Made by a program: the position numbers and the translations under genes. From assembly GCA_964519415.1 (NCBI GenBank), contig CAZFJM010000003.1, positions 5,668-69,667 of the forward strand: a stretch of DNA of 64,000 nt, read 5' to 3'. How positions within the stretch are numbered: position 1 is the stretch's first letter; each line of letters begins with the position of its first letter. Below the pieces are notes generated by a model. The model was given only the letters and a program-made list of their open reading frames with translations. It ran no database searches and was not told where the DNA came from. This stretch comes from Candidatus Woesearchaeota archaeon. GTDB taxonomy: Archaea; Nanobdellota; Nanobdellia; Pacearchaeales; GW2011-AR1. Shown one piece after another: positions 30,033-55,400 of the stretch.

Positions 30033-30328
30033 TTTTGTTTTTCTCCATCCAAGGCATCTAATTTTTTTTGAAGTAATCCTAGGATATATTCTTTTTCAGA
30101 TTGTCTTATTTTTTTAGAACTTATTGTAGAAATCTCAAGCTTATCGTTTTCTTTTTTATATTCTTTAAAACTAAATACTCTTAAACCATGATACTTATCC
30201 TTGGTTGCCATTACGTGCCTTATTCCTCCATGTGTTTGGATACCTAAATATATGTATGAGTCTTTGTCCCTATTTATTTGATAAATTTCTCCATAAACAA
30301 GTTTATCTTCTATACTCATAATCTCCAC
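30029..30328 (-). CDS. hypothetical protein
   Basis: Track start at 30328 is a GTG inside the overlap with the upstream gene. Likely real start is the ATG (MSIEDK...) at 30317-30319, ATGA-overlapped with the M29 stop. Confidence 0.3.
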   Translation of the reverse strand: MEIMSIEDKLVYGEIYQINRDKDSYIYLGIQTHGGIRHVMATKDKYHGLRVFSFKEYKKENDKLEISTISSKKIRQSEKEYILGLLQKKLDALDGEKQK

Positions 30329-31467
30329 TCTCCATCTTTTTGTACTAGTTTATCATCTAAATAAATCTCTCCGCCAGGAAAATTAGCTAGATCTCTAGCA
30401 TCTCTTCTTAAATCACAAACAATATCCCAATGTAAAGAAGATTTATTTAAGCTTCCGCCACTCTGTAAATTAGAAGAACAGCCGTTTCCAAGAGCTAAAT
30501 GAATGGTGCCTCCAATTTTTTCATCAAATAATAAATTCTTAGCATATTTTTTAATTCCGCGATTATATCCTATTCCAAACTCTCCAACAGTTCTTGCTCC
30601 TGGAATATTTAACATTTCTTCTAAAAAAGATTTATTTTCTCTTGCATCAAAGTCTAAAACTTTTCCATTTTCAAACCTTAATCTTATACCTGAAATTTCT
30701 TGTCCATTTTCAAGAGCGGGGTGCTGAAAGAAAACAGTTCCATTCATAGAATCCTCGACCGGGCCATAAAATAATTCTCCATCCGGCATATTAAATTTTC
30801 CAGCACAAATTTCTCCAGCTCTTGCTTCAATACTAAAACTTAAATCTGTCTGACCGGGGACATATAGTCTAACTCTTTTAGCCTTATCAAAAATTGCTTT
30901 CATATGCTTCATCTCTTCTCCAGTTTTTTCCCAATCAACTCCTAATGTGGCAGAATAAACAAAATCACTATAATCTTTAAATGACATTTTCATATCTTTT
31001 GCTTCTGCAATTCCTGGGAATCCGACAATATTCCATCTAACAATATAGTTGTGCTTTTCATCCTCTCGATATAAAACGTCCTTGTATGGGCCTATAACTT
31101 CTGAGTTAAATTCAGAGATTAATTGGGGATTTTCATTAGCTAATTGTAATGGATTTTCAGTGCAATCAATTAAACATCTAGAAGTACACTGCGCAGCAAG
31201 CCCTTTTCTTCTTTCCAATTCAGCAGCCCATTCTTCTCTATGATGTAATAAATGCTGAGTTCTTTTAAGATTCCAGCTTCCAAAATCCTGCAGAACTTTA
31301 GCTCCTCTTTTTTCTGCAACACTTGTAAATAACTCCGCGTAACCTTTGTAAAAAGGATCTACTTGCAATAAAAATACATCTCCTTCTCTAATTGAACAAG
31401 AATAATCTACTACTAACTCTGCTAGTTTTTTAGCACGAATATTATTAGAAAGACTCATAATTTCCAC
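30316..31467 (-). CDS. M29-family aminopeptidase (AmpS/PepS-like), copy A
   Basis: C-terminal EKIGGTIHLALG...SSLHWDIV...GGEIYLDDKLVQKDGEWRL matches M29. Paralog of the upstream gene. Real start probably ATG 31456-31458 (MSLSNN). Confidence 0.55.
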   Translation of the reverse strand: MEIMSLSNNIRAKKLAELVVDYSCSIREGDVFLLQVDPFYKGYAELFTSVAEKRGAKVLQDFGSWNLKRTQHLLHHREEWAAELERRKGLAAQCTSRCLIDCTENPLQLANENPQLISEFNSEVIGPYKDVLYREDEKHNYIVRWNIVGFPGIAEAKDMKMSFKDYSDFVYSATLGVDWEKTGEEMKHMKAIFDKAKRVRLYVPGQTDLSFSIEARAGEICAGKFNMPDGELFYGPVEDSMNGTVFFQHPALENGQEISGIRLRFENGKVLDFDARENKSFLEEMLNIPGARTVGEFGIGYNRGIKKYAKNLLFDEKIGGTIHLALGNGCSSNLQSGGSLNKSSLHWDIVCDLRRDARDLANFPGGEIYLDDKLVQKDGEWRL

Positions 31468-32525
31468 TCTCCATTTTCTTGAATAACATTCCCATCTACA
31501 ATCATCTTTGCTTTTTTCATAGATTTAACAATGTCCCAGTGTATAGCAGAATCATTTCCACCACCATTATCTTTGTAAGCCATTCCTAATGCAAGGTGTA
31601 TGGTTCCTCCAATTTTCTCGTCGAATAAAAGATTGTTTGTATATTTTGTAACTTTTGGATTGCATCCAATTCCTAATTCTCCAACATAAGATGCGTTTTC
31701 ATCTGTTGCCAATAGCTCTTTTAATAAATCTTCATTTTTACTTGCTTTGGATTCAACAACTTTTCCATTTTCAAATCTTAAGAAAATATCAGAAACTTCT
31801 TTTCCATTTTTGATTGAGTTATAATCAAATTTAATCCAGCCGTTCAAGCTTTCTCTAACTGGTGCCATAAAAATTTCTCCTGCCGGCATATTATCAAAAT
31901 CTAAATCAGATTTAGCAAGTTTTCCATGAACTTTCATTTTCAAATCAACTCCTTCGCCAATTAAATGAACAGATGAATTTTCTTTAAATTTAGATAAAGC
32001 TTTTGTCATTATTCTTTTCAATTTATTCCAATCTTGTAAGCATGCAGAATAAACAAAATTTTCATATTCAGTAAAAGACATTTCTGCTTCTTGTGCTAAT
32101 GCTAAACAAGGATAAGCAATTGTACATCTTTTTATTTTATCTTTTTCATTACAAACATAATCAGATATTTTATGTGTGATTTTTCCACGAGTAGCCATTT
32201 TCTTAGAATCACAACTTGATAACTCTCTAGTGTTTAATTCAGTATCAATTCCAATATATCCATCAGCTTGTTTTACTGTATCAAACCAATATTCTGGAAA
32301 ATGTTCTAGTTGTTCTTTAGTTGCATATTTATAAAAAAAGTCATTAACTTCTGGAAGACCGACTTTAACAATTGGAATTGCTTTTTGTAAAATAATTTCT
32401 TTGTATAATTCGACTAAAAAAGGAACTGCTTCAGTGCCGCCCGATATGATTATTTTATGTCCTGGTTTTACATTTACTCCTTCTCTTACTGCAAGTTGTG
32501 CAAGTTTTCTAGTTCTAGGATCCAT
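31455..32525 (-). CDS. M29-family aminopeptidase, copy B
   Basis: Same C-terminal motif block (EKIGGTIHLALG...SAIHWDIV...NGEWKL). 356 aa. Confidence 0.55.
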   Translation of the reverse strand: MDPRTRKLAQLAVREGVNVKPGHKIIISGGTEAVPFLVELYKEIILQKAIPIVKVGLPEVNDFFYKYATKEQLEHFPEYWFDTVKQADGYIGIDTELNTRELSSCDSKKMATRGKITHKISDYVCNEKDKIKRCTIAYPCLALAQEAEMSFTEYENFVYSACLQDWNKLKRIMTKALSKFKENSSVHLIGEGVDLKMKVHGKLAKSDLDFDNMPAGEIFMAPVRESLNGWIKFDYNSIKNGKEVSDIFLRFENGKVVESKASKNEDLLKELLATDENASYVGELGIGCNPKVTKYTNNLLFDEKIGGTIHLALGMAYKDNGGGNDSAIHWDIVKSMKKAKMIVDGNVIQENGEWKL

Positions 32526-41067: not shown

Positions 41068-41837
41068 CTTTTAGCGCTTTTCCAAATCATTTCAAAATGC
41101 TTTCTATAACCGTCAGCAATTTCTTTTTGTCTTACAACTATTGCAAACGGAGAAACCTTATTCCATAGGATAATTGCGATTTTATCTCCATATATATTAA
41201 CAGCCATGGGAGAAGAATACTTTTCAGGAAGATATCTTACTTCTGACAAAGGAATTTTTGGATTTTTTCCTTCAACATCCTTGTTAAAAATAATTTTTGT
41301 TTTTATTTTTTCTTTAACTCTTCTTTTATCAAACCAATGAAAATAAAATTCAAGACCTTCATAAGCTACTTCCGAAGCGCCAATAATTAATATTTCTTTT
41401 TTCTCAGAAAGTTGGTCTTCAAATACGGATTTTAAACCTTCTTTTCCTTTGAAAAATAATGTGTCTCCTCCATTTTTTTCTTTGGCAGAATTAAAAAGTT
41501 CAATCATTTCTGGCAAAATTTCATTCATCTTATTTTCTCTTTCTTCTTCTATTTCTTTAAACCTGGCAGGATTAGCAGCACTAAAAATCTTTTTACCATT
41601 TTCTACCATATATCCAATAAGTCCCTTGCCGATTAGTCTTTCTGTAGTATCATAAATAACTCTTCTGTGAAGTTTTGTTTTCCTAGAGATTGTTCCAGCA
41701 GGGCGCGGCCCAATTTCTAATAATGTTGAATAAACTAGTGCTTCATTTTCTGTCAGCCCAAGAGCCTTTAATTTAGATGCTTCCATACTATAATTTAATA
41801 TTTTTTTCTTTATATATCTTGTGGTGATAATAGTCAC
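41064..41837 (-). CDS. TrmB-family transcriptional regulator
   Basis: LGLTENEALVYSTLLEIGPRPAGTISRKTKLHRRVIYDTTERLIGKGLI is a wHTH plus TrmB-like C-domain. True start may be the internal Met (MEASKL). Confidence 0.6.
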   Translation of the reverse strand: MTIITTRYIKKKILNYSMEASKLKALGLTENEALVYSTLLEIGPRPAGTISRKTKLHRRVIYDTTERLIGKGLIGYMVENGKKIFSAANPARFKEIEEERENKMNEILPEMIELFNSAKEKNGGDTLFFKGKEGLKSVFEDQLSEKKEILIIGASEVAYEGLEFYFHWFDKRRVKEKIKTKIIFNKDVEGKNPKIPLSEVRYLPEKYSSPMAVNIYGDKIAIILWNKVSPFAIVVRQKEIADGYRKHFEMIWKSAKS

Positions 41838-44117: not shown

Positions 44118-44154
44118 TATAAATCCTTAAATACTCTTTTTTTGATATTTATTT

Positions 44155-44763
44155 ATGGAACCCGCACAATATTGCATTGAATCAAAAGAGAATATTGTGA
44201 GATTTATCCAAGACATTTGGACTTCTACTACCTATCCTTCTATGACTGGCGCGCACGATTCTAAATTTCTAGGATTAAAAAAAGAAATTTGGGGAGAGGA
44301 ACTACTAAAAAAGTCTTTATTTGCTGTTGCAATTATGCCAATAGTAAGAGAGTCACAAAGAAAATTCAACTCAGAATATGAGTCAGATGCAAATTCTATT
44401 CATTCTGAATATGAAAACTTGACCTCAGAGTTTCCTATTTATGTAAAGTCAGAATTTTTCCCGAGGTTTAAAATGTCTCAAACTAAACATCTTTCTATTG
44501 GGAATATGACTATTCCTACTTACAAAGTGAATCCTCTTGAAATTGCTACAGATTTATGCGATTATATTGGCGATCTTGAAAGTCTTGCTCTAAAAGGAGT
44601 ATCTGCGCCTATTGTTCCTGAGGTTTTTGATATTTTTTATAGATTTAACAAGTTAATGGAAACAAAATATAAAGAACATGTTCATTTTTTAGATGATCCT
44701 ATTAAAAAAGAGTTATTAGATCATTTTAAGGCAAGATACCCGAACAACACTATTATTTGCTAA
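44155..44763 (+). CDS. hypothetical protein, paralog 1 of a tandem pair, C-terminal Cys
   Basis: MEPAQYCIESKENIV... ~40% identical to the next ORF. First ~45 nt nearly identical at DNA level. Confidence 0.45.
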   Translation: MEPAQYCIESKENIVRFIQDIWTSTTYPSMTGAHDSKFLGLKKEIWGEELLKKSLFAVAIMPIVRESQRKFNSEYESDANSIHSEYENLTSEFPIYVKSEFFPRFKMSQTKHLSIGNMTIPTYKVNPLEIATDLCDYIGDLESLALKGVSAPIVPEVFDIFYRFNKLMETKYKEHVHFLDDPIKKELLDHFKARYPNNTIIC

Positions 44764-44826
44764 CTTTATTTTTTTAATATCTTTTATTGTAATAATACTT
44801 AAATACCTTCTAAAGTAGGTATTTTT

Positions 44827-45420
44827 ATGGAACCTGCACAATATTGCATTAAATCGAAAGAGAATATAGTAAAATTTATCCATGATGTTTGGCCTTATAA
44901 GGCATATCCTTATGTAGTAGAGGCTTATGATTCTAAATATTTAGGATTTAAACGAGAACCTTGGGATGATCTAGCGATAAGAAGTACATTATTTACTATT
45001 GCAGCCGTACCTATTACTCGAGAAAAATTTAGGGTAAAAAGAACAAGTGGCAGCCTAGAAGACTCAGAATTATTCTCTTTCGGAATCCATACTTTAAATG
45101 TAAAACCTGGAAACTTTAAAAGATTTGATACATTTAAGAGAGATGAAATGAAACTAGGGCACAAGACTATTCCTAACTTCGAAACATATCCTCTTGAAAT
45201 TGCTACAGATCTTTATAGCTACATAGAGAATCTTGAGGACCTTGCAAAAAAAGGCGTATGTGCTCCAATATCTCCAGATGTATTTAATATTTTTAATGTA
45301 TTCAATAAGGCAGTAGAAGAGATTCCTAGCGAGCTTGCACATTTCTTAGATGAAAAATATAAGCGCGCTGCTTTGGATTGTTTAAAAGAGACTTTTAAGG
45401 ATTCTCGAGTTATTTGTTAA
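44827..45420 (+). CDS. hypothetical protein, paralog 2 of a tandem pair, C-terminal Cys
   Basis: MEPAQYCIKSKENIV...; shares the PLEIATDL, KGV.API.P.VF.IF block with paralog 1. Confidence 0.45.
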   Translation: MEPAQYCIKSKENIVKFIHDVWPYKAYPYVVEAYDSKYLGFKREPWDDLAIRSTLFTIAAVPITREKFRVKRTSGSLEDSELFSFGIHTLNVKPGNFKRFDTFKRDEMKLGHKTIPNFETYPLEIATDLYSYIENLEDLAKKGVCAPISPDVFNIFNVFNKAVEEIPSELAHFLDEKYKRAALDCLKETFKDSRVIC

Positions 45421-45422
45421 TT

Positions 45423-46580
45423 TTATTTTTTTAATATTTTCTTTGCGTTTCTAACCATTTGTAATTCTTCATTTGTTGGAATTACAAAAACTTTTACTTT
45501 AGATTTTTTATCTGAAATATCTAATTCATTCTTCTTATTTTTAGCTTCATCTAGCTTTAATCCTAAAAATTCTAAATTATCTGCAACATATTTTCTTATA
45601 ACTGCGCTCTTTTCTCCAGCTCCACCAGTAAATACAATAGCATCAACTCCATTCAAAACAGCAACATAAGATCCAACTATTTTTAATAGACTATACAAAT
45701 AAACTTTCATCGCTCTGCCTGATTTTTCACAAGTCATCATGTTCTCTTCCAAGGGTCTCATGTCGCTTGTCAATTCGCTAATTCCTTTCAAGCCAGACTC
45801 TTTATTCAAGATCTTTTCAATTTCTTTGTGTGAAATCTTTTTTTCGTTCATTATATGAAAAATAATTCCAGGGTCAATGGAACCTGAACGAGTTCCCATG
45901 ACATTTCCTTCAAGAGGAGTCATTCCCATAGAAGTATCTAAAGACTTTCCAGCTTTCGTTGCACAAACACTTGCACCATTTCCTAAATGACAAGTAATTA
46001 TTTTTGCTTTTGGATTATCTAAAAGTTTAATCGCTTCTTTCATAACATACTCATGTGAAGAACCGTGAAATCCGTATCTTCTAACTCCGTGTTCTTTATA
46101 CCAAGAGTAAGGAACTCCGTATAGATAAGCTTCTTCGGGTAAATCTGAATGAAAAGAAGTATCAAAAATTGCAACCTGCGGAACTTTTGGAAGTAATTCT
46201 TCCATTATTTCAATTCCCTCAATGTTTGCAGGATTATGAAGTGGTGCAAGTGGAATTAATTTTTTAAGTTCCGCAATTACTTCTTTATTGATTAAAGTAG
46301 GTTTCTTGAATTTCTCTCCGCCATGTACGGTTCGATGAACAATCTGGCCTAAATCAGAGACCATATCTCTTTCTTGTAAAATTTCTATAATTTTTTCAAA
46401 AGATTGTTTATGGTTTTCTAACTTAACAATGATTTCTTTTTTATCTCCATTCTCTTTGATTTTTATCTTAGAGTTCGCACTTCCAATCTCTTCACATAAT
46501 CCAGAAAGAACTGTATCTTCATTCTCAAATACTTGAAACTTTACTGAACTTGAACCCGCATTAATTACTAATGATTTCAT
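45423..46580 (-). CDS. ackA: acetate kinase
   Basis: MKSLVINAGSSSVKFQVFE N-terminus and HLGNGASV motifs. 385 aa. Confidence 0.8.
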   Translation of the reverse strand: MKSLVINAGSSSVKFQVFENEDTVLSGLCEEIGSANSKIKIKENGDKKEIIVKLENHKQSFEKIIEILQERDMVSDLGQIVHRTVHGGEKFKKPTLINKEVIAELKKLIPLAPLHNPANIEGIEIMEELLPKVPQVAIFDTSFHSDLPEEAYLYGVPYSWYKEHGVRRYGFHGSSHEYVMKEAIKLLDNPKAKIITCHLGNGASVCATKAGKSLDTSMGMTPLEGNVMGTRSGSIDPGIIFHIMNEKKISHKEIEKILNKESGLKGISELTSDMRPLEENMMTCEKSGRAMKVYLYSLLKIVGSYVAVLNGVDAIVFTGGAGEKSAVIRKYVADNLEFLGLKLDEAKNKKNELDISDKKSKVKVFVIPTNEELQMVRNAKKILKK

Positions 46581-48990: not shown

Positions 48991-51264
48991 ATGGAAAAGA
49001 GGTATATAGCGTGGCTATCGGAGATTTCTAAAACAGACGTTCCAATTGCCGGCGGTAAAGGTGCTAATCTAGGTGAAATGTATAATTCTGGTTTCCCAGT
49101 TCCTCCTGCATTTGTTGTAACAACAAACGCGCATCATTATTTCATGGAAGCTACTGGCTTAAAAGAAAAAATTAATCATCTTCTTTCAAAAATTAATATT
49201 GAAGATACAAAGCAACTAACTGACAAAGCAAAAGAAGTTAGAGATTTAGTTATAGAAACAAAAATGCCTGAAGATTTAAAGCAAGAAATAACAGAAGCAT
49301 ACGATAATTTTAATGTAGACTTAAACGAAATGAAAGCAGCACCTGATGCACTTGCAATTATGAAAACAGCAAGAGAATCTATTTTTGTTGCGGTTCGTTC
49401 ATCTGCAACAGCAGAAGACTTAGCAGAAGCTTCATTTGCAGGACAACAGGACAGTTTTATTAATGTAAAAGGAAATGATGAATTAATTCAAAAAGTTAAA
49501 GCAGTTTTCGCTTCAGCATTTACAGCAAGAGCAATTTACTACCGATTGAAAAAAGGTTATGATGCCTATGTTGGAATTGCTGCAGTAGTTCAAAGAATGA
49601 TCAACTCTGATAAATCAGGAGTTATGTTTTCAAGAGATCCTGTAAAGCAAGAACACATTTTAATCGAAGCTGTTTTTGGCCAGGGTGAAGGTATTGTTTC
49701 CGGTAGAATCAAACCAGATAGTTATGTAGTTTCAAATGATTTTGACATTGTTAGCGAATCAGTTTCAGAAAAGAAAATAGCAATCGTTAGAGACTCTTCT
49801 GGTATAACAAAATCCGTAACATTAAGTCCTGAAAAAGCTAAGCAAAAAGTTTTGAAAACATTTGAAGTTAAACAATTAGCAGAGTTCGCTGTAAAATTAG
49901 AAAAACATTACGGACATCCACAAGATATTGAATTTGCAATGGAAGATGGTGCAATCTTTATCGTACAAACAAGAGCAGTTACAACTTTAGTTGATAAACG
50001 TGGAGATGCAGAGCTATCCGGAAAGATTTTAGTTTCTGGTCTAGGTGCAAGTCCTGGAGTAGGTTCTGGTCCAGTAAGAATTATTAGATTAATGGAAGAT
50101 TTGGATAAGATAAAAGAAGGCGATGTTTTAGTAACTCAAATGACAAACCCTGATATGGTTGTCTCTATGCAAAAAGCTTCTGCAATTGTAACTGATGAGG
50201 GCGGAGTAACTGCTCATGCTGCAATCGTTTCAAGAGAAATGGGTATTCCTGCTGTTGTTGGAACTGATAATGCAACTTCCGTTTTAGAAGACGGTCAAGA
50301 AGTAACTGTTGATGGTACAAATGGTAAAGTATACTTAGGTAAAGCTGAAAATAAGAAAGTAGAAGTTCTTCCTATCGTTGAAACAAAGACAAAGGTAAAG
50401 GTTTTAGTTGACTTGCCAGAATTTGCTGAGAGAGCTGCAAAAACAAACGCTGCTGGTGTAGGTTTAGTTAGAATGGAAGGTATTATTGCAACAAATGGAA
50501 AGCATCCTTTATACTATGAAGATAATGAGAAAATTAATGAGTACCAAGAAGTACTTAGAGCAGGATTTGAAAAAATCGCACATAATTTCATTGGAAAAGA
50601 AATCTGGGTAAGAACTTCAGACATTAGAACAGATGAATATTCTCATTTGGAAGGTGCTCCAAAAGAAATAGAAAAGAACCCTATGCTTGGTTTACACGGA
50701 ATTAGATTCTCATTGAAACATCCCAAGATTTTCAAAGCTGAATTACTAGCAATGAAAGAATTAGCAGACAAAGGACATAAGTTTGGTGTAATGTTCCCTC
50801 AAATTATTTCTTTAGAAGAAGTTAAAGCAGCAAAGAAGATTTTAGAAGAGTTAGGAATGATTGGTCATCCAAATATTAAATGGGGATTGATGATTGAAAC
50901 TCCTGCAGCTGTAATTTTAATTAAAGACTTCTGCCAACAGGGAATTAATTTCATCTCTTTCGGTACAAATGACTTAACACAATACACATTAGCAATCGAC
51001 AGAGGAAATGAATCTGTTCAATATTTATACAATGAATTGGGTTGGGCTGTATTGAAACAACTTTCAAAAGTCATAAGAGAATGTAAGCAATTCAAAGTCG
51101 AAACTTCTATCTGCGGTCAAGCTGCATCCAAAAAAGAGATGGTTGAGTTTTTAGTTGGACAAGGAATTGATTCTTTATCTGTAAATGCAGACGCTGCAAG
51201 AGAAGTTTCTGAATTAGTAAAGAAATTAGAAGACAATCCACCAGCGAAAAAAGTTGAGATGTAA
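48991..51264 (+). CDS. ppsA: phosphoenolpyruvate synthase (pyruvate, water dikinase)
   Basis: GGKGANLGEM, phospho-His segment GGVTAHAAIVSREMGIPAVVG, C-terminal PEP-utilising TIM barrel. 757 aa. Confidence 0.85.
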   Translation: MEKRYIAWLSEISKTDVPIAGGKGANLGEMYNSGFPVPPAFVVTTNAHHYFMEATGLKEKINHLLSKINIEDTKQLTDKAKEVRDLVIETKMPEDLKQEITEAYDNFNVDLNEMKAAPDALAIMKTARESIFVAVRSSATAEDLAEASFAGQQDSFINVKGNDELIQKVKAVFASAFTARAIYYRLKKGYDAYVGIAAVVQRMINSDKSGVMFSRDPVKQEHILIEAVFGQGEGIVSGRIKPDSYVVSNDFDIVSESVSEKKIAIVRDSSGITKSVTLSPEKAKQKVLKTFEVKQLAEFAVKLEKHYGHPQDIEFAMEDGAIFIVQTRAVTTLVDKRGDAELSGKILVSGLGASPGVGSGPVRIIRLMEDLDKIKEGDVLVTQMTNPDMVVSMQKASAIVTDEGGVTAHAAIVSREMGIPAVVGTDNATSVLEDGQEVTVDGTNGKVYLGKAENKKVEVLPIVETKTKVKVLVDLPEFAERAAKTNAAGVGLVRMEGIIATNGKHPLYYEDNEKINEYQEVLRAGFEKIAHNFIGKEIWVRTSDIRTDEYSHLEGAPKEIEKNPMLGLHGIRFSLKHPKIFKAELLAMKELADKGHKFGVMFPQIISLEEVKAAKKILEELGMIGHPNIKWGLMIETPAAVILIKDFCQQGINFISFGTNDLTQYTLAIDRGNESVQYLYNELGWAVLKQLSKVIRECKQFKVETSICGQAASKKEMVEFLVGQGIDSLSVNADAAREVSELVKKLEDNPPAKKVEM

Positions 51265-51282
51265 AAAAATTAATTCTAATTC

Positions 51283-51810
51283 TCAAATCTCAACTGCAAC
51301 TTCATTTCTTCTGAGAAATGGAACTGTCCAAGGGGAATTGTATCTCATCAAAAAGGGGTAAGACTTTGGCTTTATCTTATTTTCTTTTAAGGTGCCTATC
51401 AACTCATTTTGTAAATTTATTACTTTGCTATCTGAAGCAAAACCAGAAAATCTCAGTACAGCAAGATTTCTTGACTTTAGAGTTTCTATCTTAACATTGC
51501 CAGAATTTGGCTTAGGAAGTGTCTTGAGAGTATAACTTGATGGCATTACAAAAGACATCTTCATCTTATTCTTAGAATTACTAGTTATTACTGGTGCAGT
51601 CATAGGAATTTTTTCAGAAGTTATCACGGGAGCAGTCATAGGGATTTTTTTGCTTGAAGTATTGTCTCCAAAGATATAATTTGCAATTCTCATAAAAGCT
51701 TCATTATCATTTAAATCTCCTTCCGTAGATGCTAGAATCATACTGCCATATTTTCTTAACTCAATATTACCTATCTTCTTTACTACCTCATATTTTGGTG
51801 TTTCTACCAT
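51283..51810 (-). CDS. SOUL/heme-binding-protein-family protein with an internal 12-aa tandem duplication
   Basis: N-terminus VETPKYEVVKKIGNIELRKY and KIPMTAPV motif resemble SOUL family (recalled). KIPMTAPVITS occurs twice in tandem. Confidence 0.45.
   Translation of the reverse strand: MVETPKYEVVKKIGNIELRKYGSMILASTEGDLNDNEAFMRIANYIFGDNTSSKKIPMTAPVITSEKIPMTAPVITSNSKNKMKMSFVMPSSYTLKTLPKPNSGNVKIETLKSRNLAVLRFSGFASDSKVINLQNELIGTLKENKIKPKSYPFLMRYNSPWTVPFLRRNEVAVEI
51583..51654. repeat. two diverged 36-bp in-frame tandem repeat units inside the SOUL-like CDS
   Basis: Unit 1 51583-51618 and unit 2 51619-51654 are ~27/36 identical. Confidence 0.7.
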
Positions 51811-51866
51811 CCTTATTCTAGGTATTATCCAAATTTAAATCTATCTTCTCTCACTCGAAACTCTGG

Positions 51867-51891
51867 TTTACTCTAAAATTATTATGTCTCT
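51867..51891. repeat. 25-bp direct repeat, copy A (intergenic); copy B at 52642-52666
   Basis: tttactctaaaattattatgtctct vs tttactctaaaattataatatctct (23/25). Copy B is the last 8 codons plus stop (RDIIILE*) of the 52643..53758 gene, read on the minus strand. Confidence 0.75.
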
Positions 51892-51966
51892 AGAAAAAAA
51901 TAACTAAATTATATTTTGTTTAGTCGCAACGAGATGAAATCGAGTTACACAGAAAAAAGTTGAGAA

Positions 51967-52602
51967 TTAACGTCTTTTGTAATTATCTATATCGTCTGCC
52001 CACAGGCATTTAATAAGACTGCTTCCCTGTTTTTCTTCAGGCAAAATAGGCGGTTCTGGTTTTAGGTGTGAAAAATCTCCAAGTTGTTTAAGTGCTCCAA
52101 GAGTTTCTCTCCTAAATACTTGATAAAGTTCTTTTCGTGTCTTTACTGGAAAATATTCTTCCATTTGGTCCTTCACATAAGAACCTTTCTCGTCTATTTT
52201 AGTTGGATCAACTAGTTCTCGGATAACTAAAACGGCGTTTTCTCCGGGTCTAACTCCAATTGTCCAATCAAACCATCCTCCATAAGGACAAACTCTTTCA
52301 CCACGTTTTTTCACCATAATACTTTGAGGTACCATTCTATGTAAACTGAGACTTGCTTCATAACCTCCATTTGTTTCTTGATTTTGAGAAAGAAACGGTG
52401 AAAATCCCCAGCCTCGCTCATGAATCCGATCATAGGTTTCATCAAGACGTTTTTGATAGTCTAGACCTACCCATTCTCTCAAAGCTTTAACTTGTATAAT
52501 ATGGATTATTTTAGTTATGTCCATTCCATTCTCTTCTAAATAGTCTTCTAATTCTTCTTGGTTCATTTTTAATAGAATTCTAAGGTTATTCTTTACCAAC
52601 AC
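51967..52602 (-). CDS. hypothetical protein, 211 aa, bracketed by the 25-bp direct repeats
   Basis: ORF track. GC slightly above background by eye. No family recognised. Confidence 0.4.
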   Translation of the reverse strand: MLVKNNLRILLKMNQEELEDYLEENGMDITKIIHIIQVKALREWVGLDYQKRLDETYDRIHERGWGFSPFLSQNQETNGGYEASLSLHRMVPQSIMVKKRGERVCPYGGWFDWTIGVRPGENAVLVIRELVDPTKIDEKGSYVKDQMEEYFPVKTRKELYQVFRRETLGALKQLGDFSHLKPEPPILPEEKQGSSLIKCLWADDIDNYKRR

Positions 52603-52641
52603 CTCTAAACACTTCTAATACTTGTGGATTTTAAATCTTTC

Positions 52642-52666
52642 TTTACTCTAAAATTATAATATCTCT
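52642..52666. repeat. 25-bp direct repeat, copy B (3' end of the methyltransferase gene)
   Basis: See copy A at 51867-51891. Confidence 0.75.
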
Positions 52667-53758
52667 TCCAATATACTGTTTCTCTCTAGATTCCTTTATA
52701 GGCATTGGAACTTTTTCATCTAATTCATAAACTCTCAATCCTGTTGCAGTTACAATTCTATGAACACTAACACAATATTTTCTAATAAAAGGCATTGTTA
52801 AAACAATCTTTGCATTTGGTGTTTTCAATTCTTTCATTCTTTTTAAAATTGGAATAATTAGTTTTTCAAATTCAGCTATATATTCCGGAGCATCTCGTTC
52901 TCTCATTTTTTTTCTAACAAGTTCTCCCAGTGCTGGTTCTGTTGCAACGCCATTAATTCTAGCGGAAGGGAATCTAATAGAATCTCCAATATTCAATCTA
53001 GCTCTTCCTTTTACATCATACTTGGATTTTAACCATTCAATGTTTTGTTTAGCGCCAGTAATTGCATATCTGTCTTTATCTCCTCCAATGCAATTTATCC
53101 CCCTCAAAATAGCTTCCTGAACAATTACTCCAATTCCACAGAATGGGTCTGCAAGTAATTCTCCTTCTCTAACTTGAGACAGATTAATCAAAATTTTAGC
53201 AAGTCTAGGTGAAATAGCTAAAGCCTCTCTTCTAACTGGTTTATGCATATCTCTTTCTTTAACGTCTTTGTAAGAATAATTTTGTTCTATTACTCCAAAA
53301 TAAATTGTTTTTTGATTATTATAGTAAAAGAATTCAACATCTGCATGAGTAAATTCAAAGTCATCTCCTTCTTGCATTTTTATTCTACCTCTGCTATGTC
53401 TAACTTGTGCTTTAAGTTTTTCTGCTTTGAATTTTTTCTGAAACATCTCTTCAATTTCCTCAACAGTTTCTTCGTCGCCATTTCCAATAACAGTATAGTT
53501 AAATTTTCTTTCAGGAGCAAAATAATTTTCAATATAGCTTTTCAAATCTTTATTTGTTTTGATAGTATTAGCTTTTGCAATTTTCAAAACCCCTCCAAAT
53601 TCTTGTACATTAAATTTTATAGCATCTGCAACAGAAAGGACTAGGTAATTAGTCTCAAAAGATAAAATTTCATACGCAATTCCGTGGCTTTTCAAGTAAG
53701 ATATGACTTCCGCATACGATAAAGTAGGGTTTCTACCTAACAGAAAAAAGTATTCCAT
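52643..53758 (-). CDS. putative RNA (tRNA guanine-N2) methyltransferase, UPF0020/Trm11-like
   Basis: LADPFCGIGVIVQEAILRGINCIGGDKD is the SAM-binding motif of the Trm11/UPF0020 RNA methylase family. N-terminal THUMP-like region. 371 aa. Confidence 0.45.
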   Translation of the reverse strand: MEYFFLLGRNPTLSYAEVISYLKSHGIAYEILSFETNYLVLSVADAIKFNVQEFGGVLKIAKANTIKTNKDLKSYIENYFAPERKFNYTVIGNGDEETVEEIEEMFQKKFKAEKLKAQVRHSRGRIKMQEGDDFEFTHADVEFFYYNNQKTIYFGVIEQNYSYKDVKERDMHKPVRREALAISPRLAKILINLSQVREGELLADPFCGIGVIVQEAILRGINCIGGDKDRYAITGAKQNIEWLKSKYDVKGRARLNIGDSIRFPSARINGVATEPALGELVRKKMRERDAPEYIAEFEKLIIPILKRMKELKTPNAKIVLTMPFIRKYCVSVHRIVTATGLRVYELDEKVPMPIKESREKQYIGRDIIILE

Positions 53759-53823
53759 ATTTTATCCAATAATTCAATGGTTATAAACATTTTGAATAGT
53801 TTTTTAAATCAACCTTTCATGAA

Positions 53824-53985
53824 ATGTTTATGATAAAGAAAAGATTATGTCCTGATTGCAAGAAAGAATTTGATTTTGACACTTTAGCCCATTTCAAAAA
53901 GAAATACTGCCCTGCTTGTTCTAAGGAAAGAAAAAAGGCATACGAGAGTATTCATGAAATTTCTATTGAAGATTGCGACGATTAA
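53824..53985 (+). CDS. small Zn-ribbon protein, 53 aa (absent from the ORF track)
   Basis: Own translation MFMIKKRLCPDCKKEFDFDTLAHFKKKYCPACSKERKKAYESIHEISIEDCDD. C4 ribbon. Overlaps the 3' end of the MATE gene by 4 nt. Confidence 0.3.
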   Translation: MFMIKKRLCPDCKKEFDFDTLAHFKKKYCPACSKERKKAYESIHEISIEDCDD

Positions 53986-55400
53986 ATAATTTTTTTATCT
54001 TTCCACTTTCCATCTCTTATATATAGCCAGGAAACTACTGCAGTAAGAACATTAGATATTGGATACGCCCACCAAATTCCATTTATTCCCATTGAAGTAT
54101 ATTTAGAAAGAATGAGTGCAAACCCAAACAAGAAAACAAGAGATATAATTGACAAGTCCATAGACTTCTTCATATTTCCTGAACCATTCAGCGTTCCATT
54201 TATTGCCATCTGAAGACCTATAAAACCAAATGTTAATGCCATTGCTTTTACATAATAAACACACTCAGCAATTACTTCTATCTGTCCAGGAACAAATACA
54301 GTTACCATTTCTTTGGCATAAACAAAAAACAACACTCCGAGCAAGGTCAATGCAGTAAAGGAAATCCATATTCCTGCGTTGGATATTTTTTCCGCTCTTT
54401 CTAATTTTCCAGCACCAATATTTTGCCCAACCATTGTGGAGATAGCTGCAGAAAAACCTACTGCCGGAACAATAACCAATGCTAGCACTCTGACGCCAAG
54501 CCCGTAAGCTGCAATTGAAACTGTGCCAAAACCAGCAACTAAAAAAGTTAAAACAAGCATATTTACTGAACGCATAGATTGGCTAATTGCAGGAGGGATG
54601 CCTAAGTGAATTATTTTTTTGAAAATTGACCATATAGGTTTTATTTCTGCTAGATGCATCTTAATTCCTTTCTTTCCATCTAACAAAATAGCAATTCCAA
54701 TAAAACATGAGATTGCTTGTGAAATAACTGTAGTCCATGCTGCTCCTGCAACACCAAATTTAGGAATGATTCCCCAACCTAGAATAAATATTGGATCTAA
54801 AAAGAAATTCAAAATGACTGAACCTAGGACTAAATACAGTGGAATTTTGACCTCTCCAACACCCCTCATTAAAGATTGAAAGGCCAAATAAACATACGTA
54901 AAAACTAAACCTATAAAAGAAATTTGTAAATATTTTACTGCATCGGGAATAATCTCTGCGGAAGCACCCATTATAGAAATCATAAAATTAGAGGTATAAT
55001 ATCCGACTATACTCATAAAAATAGAAAATAAAAAAATTATTGAAATTGTTTGTGTGGAAATAAAATTAACTTTTTCGTGATCTTCTCTACCTTTATGTTG
55101 GGAAATAAGTGTTGACCCTGCAATAGCCAAACCTCCTCCAAAAGAAGTAATCAGAAAAAGAACCGGCCAGCTTAAAGAAATAGAAGCTACAGCATTCGCA
55201 CCCAAACGACCAACCCAGAAAGTATCTGTTAAACTGTAAATCATTTGTAAAAGCATTGCAAAAATTATTGGCAAAGATAAGAAAGTTAATGTTCTTAAAA
55301 TAGGCCTATGTAAGAGATGATTTTGCTCTGCAATTTTTTCTCCGATTTCGCCAGCAATTTTTGGAGGAACATTGCTATCTGTTAGAATCTCTTTTTTCAT
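53982..55400 (-). CDS. MATE-family efflux transporter
   Basis: 12-TM-type profile, 472 aa, N-terminal RPILRTLTFLSLPIIFAMLLQMIYSLTDTFWVGRLG typical of NorM/MATE. Confidence 0.75.
   Translation of the reverse strand: MKKEILTDSNVPPKIAGEIGEKIAEQNHLLHRPILRTLTFLSLPIIFAMLLQMIYSLTDTFWVGRLGANAVASISLSWPVLFLITSFGGGLAIAGSTLISQHKGREDHEKVNFISTQTISIIFLFSIFMSIVGYYTSNFMISIMGASAEIIPDAVKYLQISFIGLVFTYVYLAFQSLMRGVGEVKIPLYLVLGSVILNFFLDPIFILGWGIIPKFGVAGAAWTTVISQAISCFIGIAILLDGKKGIKMHLAEIKPIWSIFKKIIHLGIPPAISQSMRSVNMLVLTFLVAGFGTVSIAAYGLGVRVLALVIVPAVGFSAAISTMVGQNIGAGKLERAEKISNAGIWISFTALTLLGVLFFVYAKEMVTVFVPGQIEVIAECVYYVKAMALTFGFIGLQMAINGTLNGSGNMKKSMDLSIISLVFLFGFALILSKYTSMGINGIWWAYPISNVLTAVVSWLYIRDGKWKDKKII

Follow-up and report, generated by a model that had tools for sequence, protein, structure and literature searches.

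How did the last codons of a tRNA methyltransferase gene come to stand, as a non-coding copy, in front of another gene? On a contig of an uncultured DPANN archaeon (Woesearchaeota), a 25-nt sequence forms the live 3' end of a Trm11-like gene and recurs as an orphaned copy on the far side of a single ORF, ORF211. Here we describe the two copies, a second repeat that is interleaved with them, and the corresponding interval in related genomes, and we weigh the events that could have produced the arrangement.

All coordinates refer to the window, the whole stretch of 64,000 nucleotides (64 kb) that was analysed. Loci of relatives carry L numbers; L025 is a sister lineage with ~93% DNA identity to the window. 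The interval between the Trm11-like gene and the PEPS gene is called the slot. The features of the locus are as follows:

48991..51264, plus strand: PEP-utilising enzyme, PEP synthase-like (PEPS), 757 aa; conserved right flank of the slot, convergent with the Trm11-like gene
50545..51264, plus strand: identical PEPS tract, 720 nt, 100% identical to L025; its end coincides with the slot boundary
51246..51264, plus strand: P1, GAAAAAAGTTGAGATGTAA; genuine last 5 codons and stop of PEPS
51283..51810, minus strand: SOUL heme-binding-family gene, 175 aa; Pfam SOUL, E = 2.9e-49
51811..51866, minus strand: SOUL leader and promoter, 56 nt; 50/56 against the Trm11–SOUL spacer of L025
51867..51891, minus strand: T1 (copy A), TTTACTCTAAAATTATTATGTCTCT; orphaned, non-coding copy of the Trm11 end (last 7 codons, stop and 1 nt)
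51892..51951, no strand: seam spacer, 60 nt, between P2 and T1, joining two units
51952..51970, plus strand: P2, GAAAAAAGTTGAGAATTAA; stranded copy of the PEPS 3' end, overlapping the ORF211 stop codon
51967..52566, minus strand: ORF211, 199 aa from ATG 52566 (211 aa if from GTG 52602)
52567..52641, minus strand: ORF211 leader, 75 nt; homologous to leaders 3' of Trm11 in L005 and L017
52642..52666, minus strand: T2 (copy B), TTTACTCTAAAATTATAATATCTCT; live 3' end of the Trm11-like gene
52643..53758, minus strand: Trm11-like tRNA methyltransferase, 371 aa; Pfam UPF0020; conserved left flank of the slot

The 25-nt repeat and the flanking genes

Read on the minus strand, copy B comprises the last 7 codons, the stop codon and 1 nt of the Trm11-like ORF, and the C-terminus that it encodes (GRDIIILE, followed by the stop) is common to homologues. 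Copy A matches copy B at 23/25 positions, and no in-frame start codon was seen upstream of it when the sequence was read. Reading frames and homologue C-termini thus agree with the first-pass annotation, which had taken copy B for the genuine gene end and copy A for a stranded duplicate; the ORF listing likewise shows only one ORF, 51967..52602, between the two.

A search for the 25-nt pattern at up to 3 mismatches returned exactly these two matches within the 64-kb window and none in 100 dinucleotide-preserving shuffles. The T1/T2 pair is among the 9 exact direct-repeat pairs of at least 14 nt, lying within 1.5 kb of each other, that the whole window contains. Six contigs from independent samples and assemblies were 100% identical to the window across the arrangement, and four of them span T1 and P2. 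With different samples and assemblers agreeing in this way, an assembly chimera or a strain mixture was ruled out, and the repeat, first noticed from the sequence alone, stands as real and non-random. Metagenomes in which this population is present are JGI 3300045131 and 3300044991, SRR35365923, SRR12261224, SRR12261227 and SRR35365870.

The Trm11-like protein matched the UPF0020/RMKL-like SAM methyltransferase domain (PF01170) at E = 1.1e-8, above the curated cut-off, and had 518 homologues at E < 1e-40, many of them named "tRNA G10 N-methylase Trm11" by JGI. Both the domain and the full-length homology found for this anchor gene are those of Trm11 (tRNA G10 N2-methyltransferase), which is its predicted specificity. 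On the opposite side of the slot, orthologues of PEPS carry PPDK_N, PEP-utilizers and PEP-utilizers_C domains, and the amino-acid identity of PEPS to its relatives is 94–99%.

A second repeat and the seam

The T repeat is not the only one at this locus. P1 and P2, which the first-pass annotation did not record, match at 17/19 positions with an exact core of 14 nt and are interleaved with the T repeat. The boundary of the T repeat is the Trm11 stop codon plus 1 nt, and that of the P repeat is the PEPS stop codon; P1 is 19/19 identical to the PEPS end of L025. A P2-type match with up to 3 mismatches is expected 0.2 times per window, and ~3 chance 14-mer pairs are expected per window. Taken alone, P2, which is short, matches at 17/19 and contains CTCAACTTTTTTC, could be a chance or terminator-related similarity. 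T1 and P2 are read as orphaned ends of the two flanking genes and probably play no independent role.

The 60 nt between P2 and T1 gave no significant blastn-short match in the window or in any fetched locus, and by eye they bear no resemblance to PEPS or Trm11 coding sequence. A T7 run on the minus strand of this seam may signal the end of ORF211 transcription, as such runs do in archaeal terminators.

The empty site and the content of the slot

The first-pass annotation had proposed that, after an insertion, related genomes should lack ORF211 together with one repeat copy, and this is what L025 displays. Its Trm11 gene ends in AGAGACATAATAATTTTAGAGTAAA, identical to T1 at 25/25 positions, and directly precedes the orthologous 56-nt leader (50/56) and SOUL, with no ORF211. 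The Trm11 3' end, T1 with the leader, and SOUL are each 92.6–93.5% identical in DNA between the window and L025 (93.3% for SOUL), and are therefore orthologous. T1 and P1 are identical to their counterparts in L025, whereas T2 and P2 each differ at 2 positions. Relative to this empty site, the window holds a 775-bp unit between Trm11 and SOUL, which consists of the 75-nt leader, ORF211, the 19-nt copy of the PEPS end, the 60-nt spacer and one repeat copy. SOUL is the older, resident cargo of the slot and ORF211 the newer one. A native linkage of SOUL to Trm11 was not found in deeper relatives, where SOUL homologues with 75% and 67% identity lie in other contexts. Trm11 (P0003) and SOUL (P0124) are both carried by a 3,816-nt JGI contig of sample 3300059473.

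Across the relatives, the Trm11–PEPS interval measures between 39 nt and 6.2 kb and holds 0–9 genes, with the following content:

L001: 39-nt spacer, no cargo
L017: leader and one unrelated gene; the stop of the cargo abuts the PEPS stop
L018: NDK
L008 and L014: TrmB
L025: SOUL, TrmB and 2 genes
L005: leader, ORF211 homologue, 3 genes, TrmB and 4 more genes, then PEPS

The interval is a hypervariable slot whose cargo differs by lineage. The L017 cargo gene (175 aa) has a homologue in the L005 island, where it is the second gene (85%); its identity with SOUL was considered and ruled out (BLASTP E = 13).

The ORF211 protein and its leader

Alignment with homologues places the start of ORF211 at ATG 52566, which is likely the true start rather than GTG 52602. 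The product is an orphan-family protein. Its family is tiny, with 6 representatives at E < 1e-10 among 1.84 billion, and no match to Pfam, PHROG or PADLOC was obtained. The AF2 model has a pLDDT of 84.6, a confident predicted fold, and a Foldseek search of this model against PDB and BFVD gave no fold match (TM ≤ 0.32, E > 0.01).

The slightly elevated GC content remarked on in the first-pass annotation was reproduced (36.7% versus a mean of 32.2%, sd 2.3), but the excess sits in codon position 1 and does not hold up as a mark of foreign DNA. Since GC3 is ordinary (22.0 versus 20.6, sd 2.9), composition gives no foreign-DNA signal for ORF211, and a foreign composition was ruled out.

The leader of ORF211 carries a TATA-like TTTAAAAT located 6 nt past the Trm11 stop, an SD-like GAGGTG with a 9-codon upstream ORF, and a palindrome, TAGAATTCTA, 10 nt upstream of the ATG; the 5' UTR predicted for ORF211 is ~40 nt long and includes the upstream ORF. 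In L005 and L017 the leader likewise stands directly 3' of the Trm11 stop, each time with a single T copy. Its 3' core recurs in L028 and, in more degenerate form, in L032, both of them unrelated loci; the ORF211-family protein of L028 is 43% identical, yet the 34-nt leader core is near-identical. A structured RNA in the leader is not supported: no Rfam match was found across 51000-54000, and the RNAalifold consensus of four leaders reached -2.5 kcal/mol and contained no compensatory pairs.

A recent recombination tract at the slot boundary

Counted from its stop codon, PEPS shows its first mismatch to L025 only after 720 nt. Identity per 150-nt bin is 100, 100, 100, 100 and 99%, then 86–93%; beyond the tract it is ~89%, and the gene as a whole, a mosaic, averages 93.3%. 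The tract shows a recent exchange at the slot boundary, which is not necessarily the event that made T1. On the other flank, the last 107 nt of Trm11 in the window are 93.5% identical to L025, like their surroundings. Because this 3' end bears no sign of foreign origin, either the donor was closely related or the anchor lay elsewhere. Amino-acid differences between Trm11 of the window and that of all relatives cluster in residues 1–166; the cluster looks like rate heterogeneity and gives no more than a weak hint of mosaicism.

Origin of the tandem arrangement

We consider it fairly probable that the repeat is a recombination scar, left where two alternative alleles of the hypervariable slot were joined in tandem. 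The ancestor of the window lineage would have carried Trm11, the 56-nt leader and SOUL, as L025 still does. A second allele, resembling those of L005 and L017, with the Trm11 end followed by the conserved leader and by ORF211 abutting the PEPS end, would then have been joined in tandem with the resident allele rather than replacing it. This may have occurred by homology-facilitated illegitimate recombination (HFIR), with a homologous anchor in a flanking core gene and an illegitimate join at the other end, or by one unequal illegitimate crossover between two co-existing haplotypes. On the minus strand the product would read Trm11...T2 – leader – ORF211 – P2 – 60-nt seam – T1 – leader – SOUL – P1...PEPS, and the duplicated 25 nt would represent the shared flank homology of the two recombined alleles.

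Several observations agree with the joining of two slot alleles. The boundaries of both T and P at the stops of the flanking genes are where the similarity of diverged alleles is expected to end. T1 derives from the 3' end of the upstream anchor gene, which is conserved, and adjoins the older module that was displaced (leader 50/56, SOUL 93.3%); other lineages hold different cargo behind Trm11; and the homologous-recombination tract in the flanking PEPS gene (720 nt) ends at the variable region. The empty site, the orthology of T1 with its leader and SOUL, the second repeat, the variability of the slot and the recent tract ending there are shown directly; the precise mechanism, the origin of the 60-nt seam and the direction of the event (insertion here versus precise loss in L025) are inferred. 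Direction rests on parsimony, as L025 could have lost ORF211 via T1 x T2 recombination. A simple single crossover leaves the seam unaccounted for, and the model has to invoke filler DNA or a further event. None of the relatives examined has a haplotype in which ORF211 stands directly next to PEPS, and we infer the donor allele from P2 and the analogous arrangement in L017. HFIR would call for DNA uptake and RadA-dependent anchoring in this organism; neither natural DNA uptake nor HFIR is known from DPANN archaea.

The interleaved T and P repeats are also exactly what an intragenomic tandem duplication from T to P would give, with cargo replacement or loss in one copy of the slot unit, and two motifs recur in both leaders, the TATA-like GA(A/T)AGATTTAAA and CCT(T)AGAAT. 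Such a history needs extra events, however, and the two cargos are unrelated proteins. Moreover, T and P are ~90% identical while the adjoining leaders are far more diverged, which fits alleles diverging in separate genomes, with T and P under coding constraint. In a variant of this history the tandem state would be ancestral, and L025 would have lost ORF211 via the 25-nt repeats. Short direct repeats are known to mediate deletions (PMC5426353); but the T copy of L025 has both T1-type bases, and a T2 x T1 crossover would then have to fall in the first 5 nt. We leave a small chance to these two histories taken together.

The first-pass annotation had read the locus as an insertion with target duplication. 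A gene-sized insertion at the Trm11 3' end, a stranded copy and an empty site in L025 are all supported. Duplication of the transposition type is not supported, in view of the stop-codon boundary, the P repeat, the native leader, the lack of terminal inverted repeats and the lack of a recombinase or other Pfam domain in the only ORF of the insert. A slim chance goes to site-specific integration of a small cassette, with the 25 nt as an att site in the Trm11 3' end, the gene end restored and a recombinase acting in trans. It would account for direct repeats at both ends and a regenerated gene end; ORF211 relatives lie right 3' of Trm11 in two lineages, the window and L005, and the unit of leader and ORF211 is also present at the unrelated loci L028 and L032. 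Against it, the 775-bp insert encodes no recombinase, its single ORF having no Pfam match; in L005 an ORF211 gene occupies this site although T is present just once; L028, L032 and L033 contain no T-like sequence at up to 6 mismatches; and an att model predicts neither a stop-codon boundary nor a second repeat from the other flanking gene. A transposon-like insertion, the literal reading of the first-pass annotation, with staggered cleavage producing a 25-bp target-site duplication, would equally leave a gene-sized insert between direct repeats and an empty site in a relative, and is nevertheless very improbable. There are no terminal inverted repeats (none with arms at 51892 and 52641) and no transposase, and the insert is single-copy within the window. 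Although the orphan copy matches the sister lineage perfectly, the two copies differ from each other at 2/25 positions. The leader, which makes up the left part of the supposed insert, occurs natively at this site in other lineages, and a repeat bounded by a stop codon would be a coincidence.

Just as improbable is the view that the 25 nt have a regulatory function, as promoter, upstream activating site or operator, and were duplicated to drive the two genes downstream; the first-pass annotation had offered it as a duplicated promoter. Both copies do lie upstream of minus-strand genes, and the TATA-like box of ORF211 stands 6 nt past copy B. Of the proposed spacing of 40–57 nt between repeat and start, however, the value for copy B gives way: it lies 75 nt, not 40, upstream of the likely ATG 52566. 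TATA-like hexamers of this genome show a sharp peak at -29/-27 relative to the ATG (20/57 ORFs). That of SOUL, TTTAAA at 51839-51834 on the minus strand, begins at the canonical -29; it lies outside the repeat, 24 nt past copy A in the downstream direction. The two copies differ by 21 nt in their distance to the TATA, the pattern is present nowhere else in the window, and in L005, L008 and L025 this sequence is simply where the Trm11 coding region ends, in L025 as a live gene end. Neither a target duplication of the transposase or integrase type nor a duplicated promoter is likely at this locus.

A broader proposal concerns the leader itself. The leader 3' of Trm11 may act as an integrase-free platform for gene capture and expression, in which the promoter and leader are kept and the cargo is swapped at the start codon. 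Leader and cargo would then form a small module, both regulatory and cargo-bearing, that moves among DPANN archaea. The leader runs into the 175-aa gene in L017, and into the ORF211 homologue and then the homologue of that gene in L005, a pattern that would fit swapping at the start codon; the leader core also accompanies ORF211-family genes at the unrelated loci L028 and L032. We hold this proposal to be improbable; if it were true, the T1 and P2 scars would be by-products of module exchange.

Implications and comparison with known systems

With two slot alleles joined in tandem as the favoured reading, the locus provides a clean, datable case of recombination-driven gene gain in an uncultured DPANN archaeon. 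The empty site, the occupied site, the stubs of both flanks and the identical tract point to reduced genomes exchanging DNA with close relatives, with small slots between convergent core genes acting as landing pads. For annotation, the stranded 25 nt are not a gene fragment of functional interest. Minor targets for follow-up are the ORF211 orphan family, with its confident but unmatched predicted fold, and the unusually conserved leader.

Displacement arrays of the HFIR type have been documented, with orphan immunity genes in Vibrio T6SS clusters and orphaned 3' regions at Rhs/CDI loci (Kirchberger et al. 2017, PMC5361080, citing Jackson et al. 2009 and de Vries & Wackernagel 2002). As in those arrays, a conserved upstream anchor is shared by the incoming module and the resident locus, the resident module is pushed downstream with a stub of the 3' end of the old upstream gene, other strains have alternative modules at this position, and there is no integrase. 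Unlike there, a tRNA methyltransferase with a housekeeping role takes the place of a polymorphic toxin as anchor, and the cargos are unrelated single genes (SOUL and an orphan protein) instead of effector–immunity pairs. A stub of the other flank, PEPS, is also present, the host is a DPANN archaeon, and HFIR is here a proposed mechanism.

Island replacement by recombination in conserved flanks has been described as well (Lopez-Perez et al. 2014, PMC4033161). The slot resembles such replacement flexible genomic islands in its conserved flanks, its variable content among close relatives and its signature of flank recombination, the 720-nt PEPS tract. It differs from them in its tiny scale (39 nt to ~6 kb, 0–9 genes) and in that, in place of a clean double-crossover replacement, two alleles stand in tandem and the flank ends are left orphaned. 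A third comparison is with integrative elements whose att sites lie in the 3' ends of tRNA or protein genes and which duplicate that part of their target, with direct repeats of a gene 3' end around an insert and the gene left intact; here, by contrast, the insert lacks an integrase, the repeat is bounded by a stop codon, a second repeat derives from PEPS, and a related lineage (L005) has the same gene at the same site with no second repeat. Overall, the arrangement is an ordinary footprint of gene swapping, an event of a kind already known from bacteria, and it leaves current understanding unchanged.

The 25-nt repeat and its neighborhood

The two copies of the 25-nt repeat match at 23 of 25 positions and lie at 51867-51891 and 52642-52666, where the first-pass annotation had placed them. 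They are the sole matches at up to 3 mismatches in the window, with zero in shuffled sequences, and exact direct-repeat pairs of at least 14 nt at most 1.5 kb apart number only nine in the 64-kb window, several of them tandem paralogues.

Features of the locus
52643..53758, minus: Trm11-like ORF, 371 aa, UPF0020/RMKL methyltransferase domain
52642-52666, minus: T2 (copy B), last seven codons, stop and one base of the 371-aa Trm11-like ORF
51967..52602 as listed, minus: ORF211, sole ORF between T1 and T2
51867-51891, minus: T1 (copy A), non-coding
51283..51810, minus: SOUL-family (heme-binding) gene, Pfam E=2.9e-49, downstream of T1
48991..51264, plus: PEPS, 757-aa PEP-utilising enzyme, convergent, next after the SOUL gene

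Hundreds of full-length homologues of the Trm11-like ORF are annotated as tRNA G10 methylase Trm11, and T2 is its genuine end, since close homologues share the C-terminus ...GRDIIILE*. The closest genome record with this gene is a Candidatus Woesearchaeota MAG (L001, 92% amino acid identity). The GC content of the window is 32%, and there is a sharp maximum of TATA-like TTTA[AT]A hexamers at -29/-27 relative to the start codon (20/57 ORFs), which fits an archaeon having mostly leaderless mRNAs. Six contigs (two JGI, four Logan), which come from independent samples and assemblers, are 100% identical to the window here and rule out a chimeric assembly; four of the six span T1 and the adjoining 60-nt seam (51892-51951).

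Other repeats were also observed. The SOUL gene carries a 36-nt tandem duplication at 51583-51650 (32 nt compared, 88% identical), doubling 12 amino acids (KIPMTAPVITSE/N) that are single-copy in the orthologue (163 aa) of the sister lineage L025. Diverged direct repeats at 30314-32102 (55-94 nt at 73-76%, spacing about 1100) and 44152-45440 (180 nt at 73% and 31 nt at 90%, spacing 657-672) suggest tandemly duplicated paralogous genes.

An empty site in the sister lineage

A search for a relative without ORF211 and one repeat copy gave the outcome predicted for an insertion. A SOUL relative, P0124 (88% identical to the window SOUL; 94.5% outside the 12-aa indel), lies directly after Trm11 (P0003, 92% identical) on a 3.8-kb JGI contig and is also present on NCBI contig CAZCGJ010000036.1 (L025). 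The L025 Trm11 frame ends ...GGA AGAGACATAATAATTTTAGAGTAAA, which is T1 at 25/25, and the following 56 nt match window 51866-51811 at 50/56 before SOUL begins.

DNA identity between the window and L025
Last 107 nt of Trm11: 93.5%
T1 and leader: 92.6%
SOUL: 93.3%
PEPS overall, mosaic: 93.3%

Given these identities, T1, its leader and SOUL together are the orthologue of a live Trm11 end-SOUL junction, and 775 bp now separate the Trm11 body from that old junction in the window.

The 3'-most 720 nt of PEPS (window 50545-51264; L025 2346-3065) are 100% identical between the two, as compared to 86-93% in 150-nt bins for the remainder of the gene and about 87-93% for neighboring genes. The identity stops where the contents diverge, at SOUL in the window and a 75-aa gene in L025. 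The stretch is a tract of recent recombination that runs up to the variable slot, the interval between the convergent Trm11-like and PEPS genes. Homologous exchange that is anchored in the flanking core gene and ends at the slot therefore occurs in these lineages, although this exchange need not be the event that made T1.

A second repeat at the PEPS end

The last 19 nt of PEPS (P1, 51246-51264, GAAAAAAGTTGAGATGTAA) recur as P2 at 51952-51970, overlapping the ORF211 stop, with 17/19 matches and a 14-nt exact core. By chance, about 0.2 P-type matches at up to 3 mismatches and about 3 exact 14-mer pairs within 1.5 kb are expected per window; we estimate the chance of such a pair with both copies at gene ends of this locus to be of the order of 1e-3 or less. 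T1 and P1 are identical to L025, and T2 and P2 each differ from it at two positions.

The minus-strand order is Trm11..T2 - leader - ORF211 - P2 - 60 nt - T1 - leader - SOUL - P1..PEPS. The T and P repeats interleave, and the locus amounts to a tandem pair of units, each with a Trm11 end, a cargo and a PEPS end. On the cargo side, T stops 1 nt past, and P exactly at, the stop codon of its flanking core gene, which would follow if the copies represent the final bases under selective constraint in orthologous flanks of two diverged alleles; for a staggered-cut duplication, a boundary at the stop codon would be a coincidence. Sequence comparison of the 60-nt seam with the window and the fetched loci identified no source.

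The slot and its leader among relatives

Content of the slot in relatives
L001: 39 nt between the Trm11 and PEPS stops
L017: leader and one gene, whose stop abuts the PEPS stop
L018: NDK
L025: SOUL, TrmB and two small genes
L008: TrmB plus other genes, with 4.5 kb to the PEPS end
L014: TrmB adjoining Trm11; the fetched locus shows no PEPS end
L005: ORF211 homologue followed by three genes, TrmB and another four genes, with 6.2 kb to the PEPS end

The SOUL relatives with 75% and 67% identity occur in contexts unrelated to this one, so SOUL in the slot is a derived state common to the window and L025. The window's own slot is without TrmB; a TrmB-family gene at 41070-41786 is 39% identical to the slot TrmB of L025, L008, L014 and L005.

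The 75 nt of leader that separate T2 from the ORF211 ATG directly follow the Trm11 stop in L005 too, ahead of a 56%-identical ORF211 homologue, and in L017, ahead of an unrelated 175-aa gene; both loci have a single T copy. Between them the leader is 85% identical, although identity of the Trm11 proteins is only 65%. The native place of the leader is the position after the Trm11 stop.

The same two loci differ by a gene-precise indel (L005 1108-1800 versus L017 3106-3200). In L017 nothing separates the conserved leader from the ATG of gene X; exactly between leader and that ATG lies the 597-nt ORF211 homologue in L005 (…GATTAATATGACAGAAAAATAC…). Gene X is 85% identical between the loci, again compared with 65% for Trm11.

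About 35 nt before the ORF211 ATG are far more conserved than the protein.

Positions of the conserved leader element
Window: 52567-52603 (minus)
L005: 1150-1188
L017: 3152-3190, preceding a gene other than the ORF211 family
L028: 2841-2874, near-identical in an unrelated locus with a protein only 43% identical
L032: about 255-297, more degenerate

The consensus is (A/G)GAAT(C/A)xCCyyAGAATTCT(A/G)TAAAAATAAAATG, and a perfect palindrome, TAGAATTCTA, lies some 10 nt ahead of the ATG. No structure was supported by RNAalifold, and Rfam had zero matches; the element may act as an operator or in translation. An SD-like GAGGT(G) precedes a TAA-terminated 9-codon upstream ORF ending 8 nt before the main ATG in L005 (1152-1181, MVWNRLRIL*) and L017 (3154-3183, MVRNHPRIL*). 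In the window (52566-52602, minus) its stop is lost (TAA to TTA), fusing it in frame with ORF211; hence the 211-aa (GTG) or 210-aa annotation, whose TTG/GTG extension is the upstream ORF.

The ORF211 protein

Alignment with homologues most probably places the ORF211 start at ATG 52566, giving 199 aa. The family is tiny (two clusters in a 5.8-billion-sequence search; six representatives with E<1e-10 among 1.84 billion) and has an invariant P-Y-G-x-W-F motif. The AlphaFold2 model is confident (pLDDT 84.6, pTM 0.82) and predicts two N-terminal helices, a five-stranded antiparallel sheet and a long helix; Foldseek against PDB and BFVD returned nothing convincing (best E about 0.01, TM at most 0.32). 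Pfam, PHROG and PADLOC gave zero matches, with no recombinase and no sign of a mobility or defence gene. Its GC content is indeed elevated, but in codon position 1, not position 3.

Origin of the arrangement

The locus is a neat, well-documented scar of recombination in a hypervariable slot that two convergent core genes enclose in a Woesearchaeota-like genome, and T1 is very probably the orphaned end of a gene, left behind when recombination inserted the ORF211 unit. Gain in the window, as opposed to precise loss in L025, is favored by parsimony and by L025 having T1-type bases at both positions. The original proposal of insertion with target duplication thus holds for the insertion, given the L025 empty site, but not for a literal target duplication, against which P2, the stop-codon boundaries and the native leader argue.

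As the mechanism, we somewhat favor the joining in tandem, instead of exchange, of two alternative slot alleles: a resident Trm11-leader-SOUL-PEPS and an incoming Trm11-leader-ORF211-PEPS. One possible route is homology-facilitated illegitimate recombination, in which a flanking gene anchors one end while the join at the other is illegitimate; another is one unequal illegitimate crossover between haplotypes that co-existed. The older module would have been displaced downstream with a 25-nt Trm11 stub, the incoming one retaining a 19-nt PEPS stub. The weak points are the short P2, the direction of the event, the seam without identifiable source and the predicted donor allele, which was not found among the loci examined.

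The interleaved repeats could also arise from intragenomic tandem duplication with later cargo replacement, or from an ancestral tandem state with loss in L025; this is rather unlikely, as it needs more events and does not account for the roughly 90% identity of T and P next to leaders that have diverged much further. Integrase-mediated cassette insertion would account for the direct repeats and the regenerated gene end, but it leaves P2, the stop-codon boundaries and the lone T copy of L005 without explanation, and we consider it improbable. A transposon-type duplication is very unlikely: the direct repeat is its only hallmark present, there are no terminal inverted repeats, the insert's only ORF encodes no recombinase, and the insert is single-copy in the window. 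Equally implausible is the duplicated promoter element suggested in the first-pass annotation, since the SOUL TATA lies outside T1, the repeat-to-TATA spacing differs by 21 nt between copies, and relatives have the same 25 nt as plain coding sequence.

Overall, the locus is a new example of a kind of event already known. The proposed tandem joining is a variant of island replacement via recombination in conserved flanks (PMC4033161), and the same logic has been put forward to explain both the orphan immunity-gene arrays of Vibrio T6SS clusters and the "orphaned" 3' regions of Rhs loci (PMC5361080).
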